From the UHGV virus genome UHGV-1564381: DNA of 12,068 nt; one strand, 5' to 3'. Numbering within the stretch: position 1 is the first letter of the stretch; every line of letters starts with the position of its first letter. The stretch comes from a virus. Position numbers and translations under genes: made by a program. Below are positions 4,716 through 10,055 of this stretch, one piece after another. The notes under the pieces were generated by a model, which was not told the DNA's origin, ran no database searches, and saw only the letters and a program-made list of their open reading frames with translations.

Positions 4716-4797
4716 AAACCTCTTTCCTTAGTGCCTTTTGTATGTTATTTGGCTATTATAATAAGTAAGTGATTACTTAGTGGATTGTAGCAATAAA
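4716..4797. promoter_or_regulatory. Divergent intergenic region between helicase and ParB-like operon; candidate bidirectional promoter
   Basis: 82-bp AT-rich spacer between divergent starts. Contains the palindromic octamer ATTATAAT (4755-4762), which reads as a consensus TATAAT -10 on both strands. No good -35 hexamer found at 16-18 bp spacing on either strand. Confidence 0.3.
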
Positions 4798-5478
4798 ATG
4801 GATGTAAAAATCACGATTTTGCAGGTTGATGTTGCCAACCTTCGCCCGAATACCTGGAACACCAATTCGGTTGGTGCGCAGAATTTTGAAAAACTGAAAG
4901 GTTCTATCGAAAAATTGGGCTTTTTTAAGCCAATTTTGGCTCGTGAACTTGAAGATGGATTTTTTGAAATCCTCGGCGGTGAACATCGCTGGCGTGCTGC
5001 TATTGAGCAAGGAATTTCAACGGTTCCGGTGCTTTCTGTGGGCAAAATTAGCGATGTCGTAGCTAAACAGATGTCACTGGTGGACAACGAGCGATACGGT
5101 GAAGACGACCAAATCGCATTGCAACGCTTCATTGAAGAAATTCAGTCAGAACTTGACTATCAACTGTCTGAAATCGCTCCGTATGACGACGAAATCTCGA
5201 TGGTTTTAGCAAAAGAGGCGGCAATCGACCTTGAAGCACTGGAGGCGTTGTCTCGTGGTAGTGATGAGCCTGTCGATACCGACAAACGAGAGAAAACCGA
5301 ACGTGTGGGTGCGGAACATCAGACCATGCGCTTCAAAGTAACTTTCGATGCGTCAGATCGTGTTGCAGAAACCATAAAAAACATCATCAAAGAGCAGGCT
5401 ATTAACACCGGTAATGAAATGGAGAACGCTGGTGAGGCTCTGGTGTGGCTGGTCGACTACTACAAGGAGCGTATGTAA
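4798..5478 (+). CDS. ParB/Srx-fold (ParB N-terminal domain-like) protein, paralog 1
   Basis: N-terminal ITILQVDVANLRPNTWNTN followed by ILGGEHRWRAAIEQGISTVPV matches the ParB/sulfiredoxin GxxRxxA signature. C-terminal half is strongly acidic. The ORF track opens at GTG 4780; ATG 4798 is chosen by analogy with the paralog's N-terminus. Stop TAA overlaps the next start (TAATG). Confidence 0.75.
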   Translation: MDVKITILQVDVANLRPNTWNTNSVGAQNFEKLKGSIEKLGFFKPILARELEDGFFEILGGEHRWRAAIEQGISTVPVLSVGKISDVVAKQMSLVDNERYGEDDQIALQRFIEEIQSELDYQLSEIAPYDDEISMVLAKEAAIDLEALEALSRGSDEPVDTDKREKTERVGAEHQTMRFKVTFDASDRVAETIKNIIKEQAINTGNEMENAGEALVWLVDYYKERM

Positions 5479-6146
5479 TGACCAAAAAGTTTGAAATCGT
5501 ATATCGCGACCCGGCAGATCTTATTCCCTATGAGATGAATGCCAAAAAGCATGATGAACAGCAGATCAGAGATCTGGCCGCAGCCATTAAAAAGCGCGGA
5601 TTTGACCAGCCAATTACGGTCGATAAGAACGACGTAATTATTACTGGCCACGGCCGCCGTGAGGCTGCAATTTTTGCTGGACTTGAGCGCGTACCGGTTA
5701 TTGTTCGCGATGATCTCAGTGATGACGAGGTTCGTGCGAAGCGCCTTGAAGATAACCGACTTGCCAGCATTGATTACGATGCAATTAAGCTACAGAAAGA
5801 GCTTGAGTCGCTTGTTCTGGACGATATCGAGGTTTTCGGCTTTGAAGAGCGTGAGTTGAATGTTCTCGTTGGCAGTATGACAGAAGAAATGGACACCGAC
5901 TCGCTAGTTATCGATCTTGGCGAAGAAACTAAACGACAGAAGGATGAACACACCGAGATCAGTCGTGAAGTTGCAGCGGAAGAAGTACGTGTTGTCGACG
6001 TATTGGGCTTTAAAACGCTCCCTGCTGGCTCTGCCATTGTTGTTGGTGATTTGCTTGCCCATATGGAAGAAATGACGGGAGAAAGCGGGGTAGACGCATT
6101 TGTGGCATATGCGGAGAAGATCTCTTCCGGGGAGATGGCTGCATGA
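5478..6146 (+). CDS. ParB/Srx-fold (ParB N-terminal domain-like) protein, paralog 2
   Basis: ATG at 5478 preceded by AGGAG (5464-5468); the track's GTG 5445 start is rejected. Motif ITGHGRREAAIFAGLERVPV fits the ParB/Srx signature. Same architecture as the upstream gene: ParB-like N-domain plus acidic C-terminal half. ATGA overlap with the downstream ATPase. Confidence 0.75.
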   Translation: MTKKFEIVYRDPADLIPYEMNAKKHDEQQIRDLAAAIKKRGFDQPITVDKNDVIITGHGRREAAIFAGLERVPVIVRDDLSDDEVRAKRLEDNRLASIDYDAIKLQKELESLVLDDIEVFGFEERELNVLVGSMTEEMDTDSLVIDLGEETKRQKDEHTEISREVAAEEVRVVDVLGFKTLPAGSAIVVGDLLAHMEEMTGESGVDAFVAYAEKISSGEMAA

Positions 6147-6808
6147 GCAAATACATCATCAACGTATCGTTTCAGACACGCGTAAATAAAACCACGCGCA
6201 CGTTGGAAATCGCTGAGTCGTTCGGGCTTGGCCTGGACGAAAAAGAGTGGACGCTTTACGACAATCTGGAGCTGGAAGTGAAGCAGGGCGATGTGGTGTA
6301 CATCACCGGCCAATCCGGTTCCGGCAAATCCGTTGTGCTGCGCGAGTTGCAACGACAGATGAAGGATGAAGGGCTGTCTGTAGCCTCCATCGATGATTTT
6401 ACCTTCGATAATGAGGTTAACGTCATCGATCAGTTGGGCAAAACGACCAGTGATGCGCTTGGGTTGTTATCTATGGCTGGTCTGAACGATGCATATCTGT
6501 TTGTTCGCAAGCCTTCTGAAATGTCAGACGGCCAGAAATATCGTCTCAAGATTGCCAAACTGATTGAGTCAGGCGCTAAAGTATGGGCTGCTGACGAGTT
6601 CGGCGCTGTTCTCGACCGTGTAACCGCTCAGGTTGTGGCGTCTAACCTCCAGCGTGCCGCTCGAAAGGTTGGTGCGACGGTAATGGTGGCGACGACTCAC
6701 GAAGACCTGAAGAACGCGCTGCGCCCTGATATGCAGATCACCAAGCACTACAAAGAACGCGTGAAGGTGGAATATCACAATGGTAGTCATGATGAGGTTC
6801 ATTTATGA
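6143..6808 (+). CDS. Stand-alone ABC-type ATPase (nucleotide-binding domain only)
   Basis: 221 aa. Walker A GQSGSGKS, ABC signature-like SDGQKYRLKIAKL, Walker B VWAADEF, D-loop AVLD, H-loop ATTHED, all in canonical order and spacing. GGGGAG RBS upstream. ATGA overlaps at both ends (6143-6146 and 6805-6808). Confidence 0.8.
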   Translation: MSKYIINVSFQTRVNKTTRTLEIAESFGLGLDEKEWTLYDNLELEVKQGDVVYITGQSGSGKSVVLRELQRQMKDEGLSVASIDDFTFDNEVNVIDQLGKTTSDALGLLSMAGLNDAYLFVRKPSEMSDGQKYRLKIAKLIESGAKVWAADEFGAVLDRVTAQVVASNLQRAARKVGATVMVATTHEDLKNALRPDMQITKHYKERVKVEYHNGSHDEVHL

Positions 6809-7695
6809 CGGACATCATCATTAAACGCTACCGCCCTGAAGAGTTTCCGCGTCATCTGGACTTTCTGGAGCGAATGACTGTCACAAAGGGAACTGTAGAG
6901 GACTGGCACGCTCTTAAGTCGCTTCACTACAAAACAGACGGCAAACCTTTCGCGCCAACATACTATCGCTGCGAACTGGATGACCGTCTGGTGGGCGTCG
7001 TGGTTATGGCTTACCCGAAACTTCTGCTGGCACCTCGCCATCGCATGTTTCCTAAGTTGAAACCAACCACCAATACCACCGTGGCTAACCAGTACTGGGG
7101 CCGGTACGTGAATAACAACTTTGCGGTGATCAGCCGCTCAGTTGTGGATACTCAGTACCGTGGCGTAGGCGTCTCTTATCGAATGATTAACCTAGTTAGC
7201 AGGATGCATGACCGGCCAATCATTGAGATCCAGTCATCGATGAGCAAATACAATCCCTTCGCCATGAAAGCAGGGTTTAAGTTCATCCGCCCTGAGCGAC
7301 CGAAGAGCTATGAAAGTGCACTGCGTGTGTTCCAGCGCCATTTCCGCTCCGACCCGGGTGATAACGAGGCGATCGTCAAAGAGTTGTTCGCTATGAGCGA
7401 GTCTCGTCGTCGCCGTGCGCTGCGCGATTTGGTGGCGGACTACCATAAGAACAGTTCCCTGGCAAAAGCTGGGCGGAATCGTGGCACGACGATTCAGGAC
7501 ATTGCCGACAGTCTGGTGGACGAGGCCAGCATTGTGAAGCTGCTCAAGGACATTCACAACCTGAGCTTTACGTCTCCGTTGTATGGTGTGTACCGAAACC
7601 CTGACTTTGGCCGTCGACTGCCTGACACGCTGCCACTGCTGGCATTCGACAAACAACCTTTGGATAAACCGTTAGAAATTGCTTTACCGGCATAA
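6805..7695 (+). CDS. GNAT-like acyltransferase-fold protein with a roughly 110-aa C-terminal extension
   Basis: 296 aa. VVDTQYRGVGVSYRMINLV resembles GNAT motif A (R-x-x-G-x-G/A acyl-CoA pyrophosphate loop); NPFAMKAGFKF resembles motif B. The C-terminal third is Arg-rich and matches nothing I recognise. Fold assignment is by eye. Confidence 0.55.
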   Translation: MTDIIIKRYRPEEFPRHLDFLERMTVTKGTVEDWHALKSLHYKTDGKPFAPTYYRCELDDRLVGVVVMAYPKLLLAPRHRMFPKLKPTTNTTVANQYWGRYVNNNFAVISRSVVDTQYRGVGVSYRMINLVSRMHDRPIIEIQSSMSKYNPFAMKAGFKFIRPERPKSYESALRVFQRHFRSDPGDNEAIVKELFAMSESRRRRALRDLVADYHKNSSLAKAGRNRGTTIQDIADSLVDEASIVKLLKDIHNLSFTSPLYGVYRNPDFGRRLPDTLPLLAFDKQPLDKPLEIALPA

Positions 7696-7704
7696 GGATT
7701 TGCC

Positions 7705-7971
7705 ATGACGTTAACCGATAAACAAAAGGACATCATCAAAACGCTCAATCTCGGTTATGAGCGAGGTCATCTACTTGACCTGGACGAATTGCTTGAAGTT
7801 TTGCCGTACAAGACAACCAAGCAAAGTATCCAGTTCTCAATTCGCGCTCTGATAAAAAAGGGGCTGGTGGAGAAAGGGCATACGCGCCAACGCAGTGACA
7901 ATCGCTATCACCGCCGGACTCTTGGGTTAACCACTTTAGGTCGAGCCAAAGCGAAGTTACTGGTGATGTAA
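7705..7971 (+). CDS. Small putative winged-helix DNA-binding protein
   Basis: 88 aa. ATG at 7705 with AAGGA 6 nt upstream, 9 nt after the GNAT stop. The segment DELLEVLPYKTTKQSIQFSIRALIKKGLVEKG has the pattern of a wHTH recognition helix and wing; basic C-terminus. Confidence 0.45.
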   Translation: MTLTDKQKDIIKTLNLGYERGHLLDLDELLEVLPYKTTKQSIQFSIRALIKKGLVEKGHTRQRSDNRYHRRTLGLTTLGRAKAKLLVM

Positions 7972-8007
7972 TCGGTCTGGGAGCTTATTTAAAGACCTGC
8001 ATCTGTA

Positions 8008-8040
8008 TATATAAATAATAAGTAACTTATTAAATATATA
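8008..8040. repeat. AT-rich 33-bp near-palindrome upstream of the terminase genes
   Basis: Centred on A8024. Perfect 17-bp core TAATAAGTAACTTATTA (8016-8032); arms extend to 8008 and 8040 with two mismatched pairs (8014/8034, 8015/8033). Flanked by the 9-bp inverted pair CTGCATCTG (7997-8005) and CAGATGCAG (8104-8112). Confidence 0.5.
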
Positions 8041-8127
8041 CGGAAGCAGGCTTCGTAAGACATGCCAGACCTAATTAAACACCCCAGAAAACAAGTTGGT
8101 TAGCAGATGCAGTAAACAAGTTGTTTT

Positions 8128-8147
8128 AGAGCGCATGGACGCGCTCT
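8128..8147 (+). promoter_or_regulatory. GC-rich hairpin flanked by a direct repeat, just upstream of the small terminase start
   Basis: AGAGCGC (8128-8134) and GCGCTCT (8141-8147) around a 6-nt loop, followed by GTGTGTTTTAGAGGG. GTTTTAGAG occurs at 8123-8131 and again at 8152-8160. The GAGGG at 8158-8162 is the likely RBS for the ATG at 8167. Confidence 0.3.
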
Positions 8148-8166
8148 GTGTGTTTTAGAGGGATCT

Positions 8167-8799
8167 ATGACGGTCGAAAAAGACGAGGTAAAAACTCGCC
8201 TGACACCAGCGGAGTGGGCCGAAGCTGAAGCCAAATGGACGTCAGGCGAATATACACTCTCAAAGCTGGAGGAAGAGTACGGCATTCGTCGTGAAACACT
8301 CTCCAGACATTTCAAAAAGCGAGGATTAGAGAAAGGCGCGGACTCTGTTGGGAAGATGGTTCGTGAGTCTCTTAAATCTGACGCAGAGCTTCGCGCTAAA
8401 GCCCGTGCGGAAAAGATAGAAGAACGTCGTACACGTTATGACGGCTGGGCGTATGCGTTGGGGCAGATGGTGATGGTCGAAGTCACTACGGCCAAACGTG
8501 AGGGTAAGCCTTTAGGGGCGATTGAGGATTCTCTCAAGAGCTTACAGAGAGCCAGTAATACCCTTGCAAAATGCTTTGAAGTTTCGTCCAAAGCATTGGG
8601 CATGGATCATGCGGAAAATGACGAGGAAGAAATTCCGAACCTGGTATTTGGTGAGCTTACGCCTTCCCAGGTGGCGAAATTACGTCAGGAAGACGACGAG
8701 CCTGAAATCATCGATGACGAATTGCTTGAGACGTTGGAAGAAGAAGCTCTAAGCGAATTTGATGCGACAGATGATGGAATTGAAGGGGAGGACGAATAA
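8167..8799 (+). CDS. Putative terminase small subunit
   Basis: 210 aa, sitting directly upstream of the large terminase and overlapping it by 1 nt (TAATG). N-terminal region (LSKLEEEYGIRRETLSRHFKKRG) looks like an HTH. Highly acidic C-terminal tail (EDDEPEIIDDELLETLEEEALSEFDATDDGIEGEDE). Assignment is by position and architecture. Confidence 0.5.
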   Translation: MTVEKDEVKTRLTPAEWAEAEAKWTSGEYTLSKLEEEYGIRRETLSRHFKKRGLEKGADSVGKMVRESLKSDAELRAKARAEKIEERRTRYDGWAYALGQMVMVEVTTAKREGKPLGAIEDSLKSLQRASNTLAKCFEVSSKALGMDHAENDEEEIPNLVFGELTPSQVAKLRQEDDEPEIIDDELLETLEEEALSEFDATDDGIEGEDE

Positions 8800-10055
8800 T
8801 GGCAATCCCGTCCTCGCTCAGTCTTGTGCAACTGCATTCTGGACAGATGAAAGTCTTCCAGTCTCCGCATCGATTTAAAGTTGTTTGTGCTGGTCGACGC
8901 TGGGGAAAATCCCGGTTGTCGATCTCCACTATTATTCGTGCGGCGGCAAAGGAAAAAAAGCAAAGAGTCTGGTATGTCGCTCCTACTTACCAGATGGCTC
9001 GCCAGATTTTGTGGGACGATCTACAGGAAGTTCTGCCTCGTAAGTGGGTTAGGAAAAAGAACGACACCACGATGACAATCGTGTTGAAGAACGGTTCGGA
9101 GATCGCCCTCAAAGGTGCTGATAAGCCTGACACTCTGCGCGGCGTAGCGTTGCATTTTGTAGTGCTTGATGAATTTCAGGATATGAAGGCTGACACCTGG
9201 TACAAGGTGTTACGACCTACTCTTTCATCGACACGCGGCGGTGCACTGATCATTGGTACGCCAAAAGGCTTCTCGGAATTTCACAAACTGTGGACTATAG
9301 GCCAGAACGTAGAGCTGCAAAGAAAGGGACAGTGGAAGAGCTGGCAGTTTGTAACTGCCGATTCTCCGTTTGTACCTACGGCGGAAATTGAAGCTGCTAA
9401 GAACGATATGGACCCGAAATCGTTCGCTCAGGAGTACCTGGCGAGCTTTGAGAACATGTCCGGGCGCGTTTACTACCCGTTCGATCGTAACGTGCATGTA
9501 AAACCGCTTCAGTTCAACCCTCGGTTGCCTATATGGGTAGGGCAGGACTTCAACATTGACCCGATGTCTTCAGTAATTTTGCAACCTCAGCCAAATGGTG
9601 AGCTATGGGCAATTGATGAATTGGTGCTCTTTTCCTCTAACACGGCAGAGGTTTGTGATGAGCTTGAGAGACGCTTCTGGCGCTGGAAATCACAGATAAC
9701 GGTATTTCCAGATCCGGCAGGTGCTTATCGCCAACATGCTCGCGGGGAGTCTGACGTCGACATATTCAAAGAGAAGGGATTCTTACGTGTCGATTATTCG
9801 AAAAAGCACCCGCCAATTGCGGATCGTGTTAATGCTGTTAACCGAATGCTGATGACCGCATCTGGAGATATCCGGCTGTATATCGATCCGAAGTGCAAGC
9901 ATTTGATTGATTCACTGGAAAAAGTCATCTACAAGCCTGGAACACGAGATATGGATAAGACAGGTGGCATTGAGCATAGTGCAGACGCATTGGGCTATCC
10001 AGTACATCGTAGGTATCCAGTCAAAAACCGTGTTATTCTTGGTGGTTCTCGATAG
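8799..10055 (+). CDS. Terminase large subunit (ATPase plus nuclease)
   Basis: 418 aa. Terminase-type Walker A VVCAGRRWGKSRLS, Walker B HFVVLDEFQD, and a C-terminal half with conserved acidic residues (QDFNIDPMSS, FPDPAG) consistent with an RNase H-like nuclease domain. GGGGAGG RBS 7 nt upstream. Confidence 0.85.
   Translation: MAIPSSLSLVQLHSGQMKVFQSPHRFKVVCAGRRWGKSRLSISTIIRAAAKEKKQRVWYVAPTYQMARQILWDDLQEVLPRKWVRKKNDTTMTIVLKNGSEIALKGADKPDTLRGVALHFVVLDEFQDMKADTWYKVLRPTLSSTRGGALIIGTPKGFSEFHKLWTIGQNVELQRKGQWKSWQFVTADSPFVPTAEIEAAKNDMDPKSFAQEYLASFENMSGRVYYPFDRNVHVKPLQFNPRLPIWVGQDFNIDPMSSVILQPQPNGELWAIDELVLFSSNTAEVCDELERRFWRWKSQITVFPDPAGAYRQHARGESDVDIFKEKGFLRVDYSKKHPPIADRVNAVNRMLMTASGDIRLYIDPKCKHLIDSLEKVIYKPGTRDMDKTGGIEHSADALGYPVHRRYPVKNRVILGGSR

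Follow-up and report, generated by a model that had tools for sequence, protein, structure and literature searches.

The spacer of 195 bp between the gene of an 88-amino-acid (aa) winged-helix protein and the small terminase gene terS, at positions 7972-8166 of the virus genome UHGV-1564381 (12,068 nucleotides, referred to as the window), is on balance best explained as a composite control region of gene expression, built from elements which are reused elsewhere in the genome. It appears to separate an operon encoding ParB-like proteins, ATPases and the winged-helix protein from the packaging and virion operon. Immediately past the winged-helix stop codon, the transcript would fold into a hairpin of ~98 nt, which is one of three copies that seem to punctuate the modules of the genome. 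The motif pair at 8089-8126 would provide sites for a dimeric DNA-binding regulator controlling about 20 promoter regions, and the region 8127-8169 would form a terS leader, in which an RNA hairpin followed by the ribosome-binding site (RBS) sets the level of terS translation. Each of these components is of a known kind (a hairpin or terminator between operons, an operator of palindromic sequence, and a translation-initiation leader with secondary structure), and none has a match among the curated RNA families; their anatomy, copy numbers, conservation, and covariation were observed directly.

The original prediction had listed four kinds of repeats in the spacer, more than an RBS spacer needs, and proposed a pac site or a late control region. 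Three of the four are above chance and conserved, whereas the fourth, a 9-bp inverted pair, is a chance occurrence. Late control is partly borne out by regulatory-looking elements, which are a hairpin of a terminator-like family, an operator-like motif and a leader hairpin, but the motif is no particular mark of late genes, as it occurs at about 20 sites across the genome. For a pac site no specific support was found.

Judging from sequence identity, the window belongs to an SSU5-like phage-plasmid of Escherichia coli. The 901 bases around the spacer are 99.6-99.7% identical to Escherichia phage CMS-2020a, 99.4% identical to Cyrano (pLF82, a phage-plasmid from E. coli LF82) over the part contained in its record, and 78-84% identical to Salmonella phage SSU5 and Klebsiella phage-plasmids; with the E. 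coli plasmid NZ_AP022089, identity over window positions 7705-8400 reaches 100%. Matches to the 901 bases were found in 834 plasmid records, among them pHCM2 of S. Typhi and pMT/pMT1 of Y. pestis, and in 12 phage records. STEFF14, a distant relative with 64% identity in the spacer region, was used as a far comparison genome, and the sites of the motif were counted in Cyrano, SSU5, and STEFF14. A search for more distant terS loci in GTDB genomes returned four close relatives only. The spacer and its flanking genes are arranged as follows:

7972-8166: intergenic spacer between the 88-aa winged-helix gene (7705-7971) and terS (8167-8799)
7705-7971, + strand: 88-aa winged-helix gene, last gene of the ParB-like/ATPase operon; PHROG 900, no function assigned; candidate regulator
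8167-8799, + strand: open reading frame (ORF) of terS, small terminase; PHROG 867 'DNA binding domain'; N-terminal helix-turn-helix (HTH); annotated in Cyrano as terminase small subunit

The large hairpin and its three copies

An AT-rich near-palindrome of 33 bp with a perfect 17-bp core had been noticed in the spacer. It is present, with the core sequence TAATAAGTAACTTATTA, and is part of an element which is larger than described:

7974-8071, + strand: copy a of the hairpin element, ~98 nt, with an outer stem GGTCTGG/CCAGACC, inner arms and an AT-rich apex
8008-8040, no strand assigned: AT-rich near-palindrome with the perfect core at 8016-8032, forming the apex of the ~98-nt hairpin

The outer stem is built by GGTCTGG at 7974-7980 and CCAGACC at 8065-8071, and the inner arms CCTGCATCTGTATATAT (7996-8012) and ATATATACGGAAGCAGG (8034-8050), each 17 nt long, are 88% complementary. 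Folding of the + strand as RNA results in a single 98-nt hairpin of -44.2 kcal/mol (z = -7.7), a stability reached by none of 200 shuffled sequences, and folding of the - strand at 7974-8071 results in -37.5. In a consensus fold of 15 variants of copy a, 28 pairs are retained, three of them with compensatory changes. The outer stem shows G-C replaced by A-U and U-A replaced by A-U, and at an inner-arm pair TCTG/CAGA alternates with TCCG/CGGA, both kinds of intermediate being seen.

The element exists in three orthologous copies per genome in Cyrano and SSU5. Copy a precedes terS, copy b lies between the parA/cargo module and the replication genes, and copy c follows the DNA methyltransferase gene. 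Every copy in these two genomes begins 23-28 nt past a stop codon. A pattern scan of IMG/VR found 120 instances, all of which could be assigned to the three positions (3 of them weakly). Small plasmids bearing the palindrome alone are truncated SSU5-type derivatives and therefore offer no independent context.

The copies differ in the sequence that follows them. The mean number of T in the 9 nt 3′ of the hairpin is 6.0 for copy b, 5.5 for copy c and 3.0 for copy a, with means of 3.9 (copy b) and 3.1 (copy c) on the other strand. The T-runs after copies b and c, like TCTTTTT, CTTTTTAAG or CTGTTTT, give them the look of intrinsic terminators. Copy a shows CTTCGTAAG, TTCTGAAT, or CTCTCAAAC at this position, and the copy a of STEFF14 does carry a T-run (CTCTCTTTTT) there. 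Copies b and c would thus most likely terminate transcription, while copy a, the U-tract of which is degenerate in most lineages, is probably a leaky terminator or a 3′-end or processing hairpin that lets some transcription pass into terS. From the sequence of the copies we infer that transcription ends at the hairpin or passes it, and the upstream operon at 4780-7971 may be co-transcribed with terS via a leaky hairpin.

Several observations weigh against reading the element as a transcript hairpin only. The fold energies of copies b and c show no consistent preference for the + strand, and the inner arms of the three paralogous copies are nearly identical, also when genera are compared. All copies of STEFF14 show the same alteration of the right arm (GAGCCAGG), while the pairing of this arm with the left one has decayed. 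To explain the conservation of the arms and this concerted change, structure alone does not suffice; they point to gene conversion or to recognition of the arm sequence by a protein, on the level of either DNA or RNA.

The large palindrome could also act as double-stranded DNA, either as the site of a phage protein, for instance one of the ParB type (dispersed and centromere-like as in N15), or as a recombination or replication element at module boundaries. We regard this as improbable, but it would account for the 17-nt arms being almost invariant while apex and flanks vary, for the concerted change of the right arm in STEFF14, and for the fact that copy c of STEFF14 retains the right arm only. 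In addition, the parA operon lies before copy b, an operon which opens with two ParB_N proteins lies before copy a, and variable cargo is joined exactly at copy b. A double-stranded site is at odds with compensatory changes that affect the outer stem and one pair of the inner arms, with the start of all copies 23-28 nt past a stop codon on the transcribed strand, and with the T-runs after copies b and c, which the coding strand alone carries (means of 6.0 and 5.5 vs. 3.9 and 3.1 on the other). It is also at odds with the wobble asymmetry of the arms, 34 G.U pairs against 6 A.C mismatches on the + (coding) strand, which favors a role as RNA, albeit in sequences that are related to each other. 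A hairpin formed in the transcript is therefore retained here as the favored reading.

At copy b (Cyrano 31159-31211, SSU5 33458-33513 and variants in IMG/VR), the 5′ flank with the cargo genes is wholly different between genomes, whereas the hairpin and its 3′ flank are conserved. The joining of variable cargo to a conserved copy means that the element marks a module junction where recombination swapped the cargo.

Other identities of the element were considered and rejected. A covariance-model search against Rfam returned only chance matches to microRNA hairpins, with 14-19 bits where 45-211 are needed. A LexA box was rejected by inspection, since the distance between the halves CTGTATATAT and ATATATACRG in the arms exceeds that of CTGT-N8-ACAG by ~21 bp. 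An N15-like telomere-resolvase target was rejected because each genome has three copies, the plasmid records are circular, and the annotated genes include no protelomerase. Finally, many copies contain in their left arm a late promoter of the T4 type (TATAAATA), but copy a of Klebsiella and copy b of Cyrano are without it.

The 9-bp inverted pair which was said to bracket the palindrome, CTGCATCTG at 7997-8005 and CAGATGCAG at 8104-8112, does exist, but it is not above chance: when the 195 bp were shuffled by dinucleotides, 69 of 2000 shuffles (3.5%) contained a distant perfect inverted pair of 9-mers. The arms of the pair in the spacer vary independently in near relatives. In Cyrano the sequence is AAGATGCAG, a left arm CCTGCTTCTG beside the retained right arm CAGATGCAG is found in many E. 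coli relatives, and Salmonella-type relatives have GGCACAGAA at the position of the right arm.

A genome-wide palindromic motif and its candidate reader

The imperfect direct repeat described for the spacer was recovered at 8085-8101 and 8110-8126 with a spacing of 25. It consists of two instances of a 13-bp palindromic motif, AAACAAnTTGTTT, preceded by a promoter-like block:

8070-8088, + strand: CCTAATTAAACACCCCAGA, a degenerate form of the block gATAATtAcaCCAaCAAGA which precedes the motif at class I sites (see below)
8089-8101, no strand assigned: motif copy 1, AAACAAGTTGGTT, with one mismatch to the motif; operator-like
8089-8113, + strand: tandem-duplicated segment of 25 bp, comprising motif copy 1 and the 12 following bases, from the alignment of the terS region
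8114-8126, no strand assigned: motif copy 2, AAACAAGTTGTTT, without mismatch; ancestral and unchanged in every relative

The 25-bp duplication is limited to the lineage of E. coli, Salmonella, Yersinia, Enterobacter, and Cronobacter. In the Klebsiella relatives, which have the same gene order, and in STEFF14 only the second of the two copies is located upstream of terS. The repetition itself is thus dispensable, the Klebsiella relatives managing with a single copy. Absence of the repeats from relatives with the same gene order, which the original prediction had named as evidence against itself, was thus observed for one motif copy in Klebsiella, whereas the hairpins are conserved.

The motif is dispersed over the whole genome. 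Cyrano contains 18 sites with at most one mismatch, 15 of which are intergenic (P = 3e-11, with 13% of the genome annotated as intergenic), and its sites are located 12-74 nt 5′ of the next annotated start. In SSU5, 20 sites were found at orthologous places, including parA, the DnaB-like helicase gene, cobT, nrdB, and a cluster of small ORFs. STEFF14 also has 20 sites, with the motif unchanged at 64% identity, so that elements of the E. coli, Salmonella, and Klebsiella type (the latter represented by STEFF14) all carry about 18-20 sites per genome, nearly all of them between genes and beside promoter-like sequences.

Two classes of sites can be distinguished. At class I sites, the motif is located directly 3′ of TGnGATAAT-tAAcaCCAaCAAGA, which resembles an extended -10 element, and a conserved tGCCTTTT box lies 11 nt further 5′. 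The consensus of these surroundings, built from 25 sites in Cyrano and SSU5, reads tGCCTTTT-N11-TGnGATAAT-AACACCAACAAGA-motif, in which the motif starts 13 nt after the TGnGATAAT element and would therefore cover about +5 to +20 of the transcript. At class II sites, the GCCTTTT box comes just 3′ of the motif, and in many cases a terminator hairpin directly precedes the motif. One promoter has both positions occupied, 51 bp apart.

The box found 11 nt 5′ of TGnGATAAT at such sites in Cyrano (e.g., 93114-93190), SSU5, and STEFF14 takes the place of the -35 hexamer, and its position resembles that of the MotA box of T4 middle promoters. SSU5-like phages also carry several T4-like genes for replication and recombination. 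A second intergenic signature, ATAAGTAAGT, follows right after a -10-like element at four places in Cyrano (15529, 31296, 52659, and 105107) and three in SSU5 (9067, 39087, and 79904). Its sites include window positions ~4733-4778 before the ParB-like operon, a position before the gene of a gp32-like single-stranded DNA-binding protein, and one inside the block of tail genes. This may be a separate, perhaps late, class of promoters.

The size of the palindrome and its positions are what a dimeric regulator of the repressor type would be expected to use, and most sites, just 3′ of an extended -10 element, would be in the position of a repressor operator. No paper containing the motif was found in the literature searched, nor was a description of regulatory motifs or spacer elements of the SSU5 group.

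For the spacer itself, some points weigh against this interpretation. The -10-like hexamer of the block CCTAATTAAACACCCCAGA is CCTAAT, which lacks the A at -11, and its counterpart in SSU5 is CGGTTT. A scan for sigma-70 promoters called none in 7600-8500, with window-wide counts equal to chance. Due to the poor hexamer and the missing sigma-70 call, a promoter at the terS motifs is doubtful, and the motif next to terS may act without one. Moreover, genes of some motif-bearing operons (parA; CYRAN_101/102 and CYRAN_108/109) are expressed in the lysogen (PMC9928086), and SSU5 is without a homologue of the putative repressor CYRAN_45. Taken together, the last two observations make it unlikely that the regulator is a simple master repressor.

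The candidate reader of the motif is the 88-aa winged-helix protein encoded directly upstream of the spacer. Its AlphaFold2 model (predicted local distance difference test score 80.8) shows three helices followed by a beta hairpin (H-H-H-beta hairpin), and a Foldseek search with the model resulted in template modeling scores of 0.67-0.77 to winged-HTH proteins of the MarR/MepR type. It is 89% identical in SSU5 and 78% identical in STEFF14, which makes it the best candidate among the conserved small DNA-binding proteins of all three genomes. Searches of the PDB with the sequences of the winged-helix protein and of TerS returned no useful matches. Both the binding of the motif by a protein and the direction of regulation are inferred here.

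The winged-helix gene closes a conserved operon at window positions 4780-7971 on the + strand, the same strand as terS, which encodes two ParB_N-domain proteins, an ABC-type ATPase, a 296-aa ATPase (PHROG 886) and the 88-aa protein, and which is also present in SSU5 and in STEFF14 (64% identity). A packaging accessory, partition, and defence were considered as roles of this operon. Just 5′ of its first ParB-like gene, a promoter-like sequence GCCTTTT-N14-TATTAT is located at window positions ~4733-4759.

The terS leader

The GC hairpin with flanking repeats which had been described 5′ of terS was confirmed as a stem-loop at 8127-8148, with TGTTTTAGAG at 8122-8131 and 8151-8160. As judged from its sequence variants, it is a conserved leader structure. 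It is composed of the following elements:

8127-8148, + strand: terS leader hairpin UAGAGCGC-AUGGAC-GCGCUCUG, with GGA in the loop at 8137-8139; terminator-like match
8149-8156, + strand: U-rich tract UGUGUUUU 3′ of the leader hairpin; not retained in STEFF14
8156-8169, + strand: ribosome-binding region with the mini-hairpin UAGA-GGGA-UCUA, the Shine-Dalgarno (SD) sequence GAGGGA at 8158-8163 and the start codon at 8167-8169; invariant in the alignment

The hairpin is retained in all relatives. Its stem shows compensatory changes from GAGCGCA/TGCGCTC to GAGCACA/TGTGCTC in two variants, and changes from A-U to G.U that pair on the + strand only. In STEFF14 the stem is wholly different in sequence (GGCGTC/GATGCC) and is still retained, while the U-tract is lost (GAGUGGUAG). 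Invariant in all relatives are the GGA of the loop and the ribosome-binding block UAGAGGGAUCUAUG, which can fold into a mini-hairpin of four pairs with a second GGA (8161-8163) in its loop. The flanking GTTTTAGAG repeats consist of the motif end and the 5′ stem arm on the left and of the SD region on the right; in E. coli they can pair in an alternative, G.U-rich fold which hides the SD sequence. A single GATC (Dam site) at 8162-8165 overlaps the SD and start region of terS, and the phage-plasmid encodes an adenine methyltransferase of its own (CYRAN_79 in Cyrano).

The leader hairpin and U-tract (8127-8156) could alternatively form a transcription attenuator, so that the late operon would need an antiterminator, like lambda Q at tR′. 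The stem of 8 bp is GC-rich and is followed by UGUGUUUU, it is the sole terminator-like match in 7600-8500, it is conserved with covariation, and it lies between the operator motifs and the RBS of terS. Nevertheless, this count of one equals the chance expectation (1.0 in shuffles, not significant), the main U-run begins 4 nt past the stem, and STEFF14 has retained the stem and lost the U-tract. The conserved feature is therefore the hairpin with its GGA loop and not termination, and we consider an attenuator very doubtful. A leader structure which sets the level of terS translation remains the preferred reading of this region.

The arrangement of the two GGA sequences recalls the repression of glgC by CsrA, in which a GGA in a hairpin loop lies just 5′ of an SD sequence that itself contains GGA (PMC7652899). 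The SELEX (systematic ligand evolution by exponential enrichment) consensus of CsrA is RUACARGGAUGU, in which ACA and GGA are invariant (PMC7652899). It is matched at 7 of 12 positions by GCGCAUGGACGC of the window and at 9 of 12 by GCGCAAGGAUGC of the Salmonella type, with ACA replaced by GCA. Control of the terS leader by CsrA, which would be assumed by analogy, is at present an open, testable lead and not a finding.

Packaging and comparison with known systems

Since the spacer is located 5′ of a small terminase gene, the part of the original prediction that concerns packaging was weighed separately. The spacer could be a packaging recognition site, in which TerS binds the repeats located 5′ of terS and cleavage by the terminase takes place within the palindrome or close to it, possibly superimposed on regulation. 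The position and the order of palindrome, repeats, and terS resemble lambda cos and SPP1 pac: the cosN-cosB region of lambda lies upstream of Nu1, and pacL-pacC-pacR of SPP1 lies around gene 1. TerS has an N-terminal HTH-like region, and the large terminase gene follows directly:

8799-10055, + strand: terL, the start of which is overlapped by the end of terS; Pfam Terminase_6N; followed by the portal gene

The Terminase_6N type of TerL is compatible with headful packaging. In addition, the SSU5 record ends with ...ACTTATTA and begins with AATATATACGG, 9-10 nt from the center of the palindrome.

None of the repeats is specific to this locus, as the palindrome is present in three copies and the motif of the direct repeat in about 20 per genome, and repeats common to many loci do not provide packaging specificity by themselves. 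One repeat is due to chance and another is a lineage-specific duplication, so that a second motif copy is absent from Klebsiella relatives with the same gene order. A lambda-type cos is unlikely in particular, because TerL is T4-like or P74-26-like (best Pfam match Terminase_6N; closest solved structures P74-26 TerL and T4 gp17) and not of the lambda GpA or HK97 type. The Cyrano record (OV696614) repeats the origin of the SSU5 record, shifted by one base, but Cyrano is a re-annotated plasmid that was compared with SSU5 and hence not an independent end; other virion-derived phage records start elsewhere. In several well-studied headful phages, pac is located inside terS, which counts against a pac site in the spacer. 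Overall, we give little probability to a packaging site made of these repeats, and likewise to one which overlaps the spacer in another form or lies inside terS.

The SSU5 record NC_018843.1 was opened inside the apex of copy a (positions 1 and 103299), so that the element is split and invisible in the linear annotation. This start could be a real end or equally an assembly break at an inverted repeat with three copies, and the palindrome matches in IMG/VR, mostly internal to contigs, are uninformative on assembly breaks. No report on the packaging ends of SSU5-like phages was found in the literature searched. In general, a repeat cluster 5′ of a terminase gene should be checked for its uniqueness to the locus before it is read as a packaging site.

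Two further records concern the terS locus. In the Klebsiella plasmid CP155666.1, the transposase gene of ISKpn18 is located on the opposite strand at the expected place of terS, ~300 bp 3′ of the winged-helix gene, and the similarity to the window ends at query position 549. This suggests the insertion of an insertion sequence, which would inactivate packaging. A 29.6-kb contig labeled as a metagenome-assembled genome ('MAG: Bacillota bacterium', JAEWTL010000044.1) encodes a TerS with 87% identity to that of the window's phage-plasmid, and the label is most likely a binning error. At the other end of the window, positions 476-997 on the - strand encode a 173-aa protein with the Pfam domain Flag1_repress (FljA, phase-1 flagellin repressor; E = 6e-69), which is homologous to CYRAN_114 and to SSU5_121, annotated as a transcriptional repressor. 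A homologue of a flagellin repressor on a phage-plasmid may alter the motility or antigenicity of the host.

SSU5-like phage-plasmids are very common in Enterobacterales, as the 834 matching plasmid records illustrate, and some of them carry antibiotic-resistance genes (PMC9600943). What is new here is descriptive: a conserved set of about 20 operator sites and a three-copy punctuation hairpin in a widespread and medically relevant group. How these phage-plasmids control the switch from plasmid maintenance to virion production was not described in the literature searched, and the operator at about 20 promoters together with the three hairpins offers testable handles on this switch. In a far-reaching version, which we put forward as a speculation with little probability, the SSU5 supergroup, including pHCM2, pMT1, and many resistance elements of Klebsiella and Enterobacter, would share one undescribed regulatory code. 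In this code, AAACAAnTTGTTT would be read by the 88-aa winged helix to switch about 20 promoters, the arms of the three-copy hairpin of ~100 nt would be recognized by a protein, and terS, and with it packaging, would be gated by CsrA of the host via the two GGA loops.

Among known systems, lambda cos and SPP1 pac share with the spacer a symmetric element followed by repeats within ~150 bp before the small terminase gene, and the pac region of SPP1 overlaps terS promoters. The spacer differs from them in that its elements are not unique to the terminase locus and that its large terminase is not of the lambda type; neither a unique site nor a large terminase of the GpA or HK97 type, as expected for a lambda-type cos, was found.

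The hairpin resembles Rho-independent terminators and the RNase III processing hairpins of T7, as it is a stable structure after a stop codon, occurs with related sequence at several module boundaries and is followed by T-runs in copies b and c. At 7974-8071, the stable GC-closed stem-loop of an intrinsic terminator is present and the immediate 3′ U-tract is missing. Compared to a typical terminator, the hairpin is much longer, with ~45 pairs, internal loops, and an AT-rich apex, copy a has no good U-tract, and the sequence of the arms is conserved far beyond structural need.

In the terS leader, a GGA in the hairpin loop upstream of the SD sequence and a second GGA overlapping it, 24 nt apart, are both present and invariant, as in the glgC type of CsrA target. 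With 7-8 GC-rich pairs, its stem exceeds those of typical CsrA hairpins in stability.

The motif, finally, is comparable to the C1 operators of P1, where a phage-plasmid likewise carries one short motif about 20 times over ~100 kb at the promoter regions of many operons. One motif at many promoter regions genome-wide was found in all three genomes compared here. The C1 operator is asymmetric and has a length of 17 bp, whereas the motif of the window is a 13-bp palindrome of unrelated sequence, and some of the operons that carry it are expressed in the lysogen; repression by its reader is putative.

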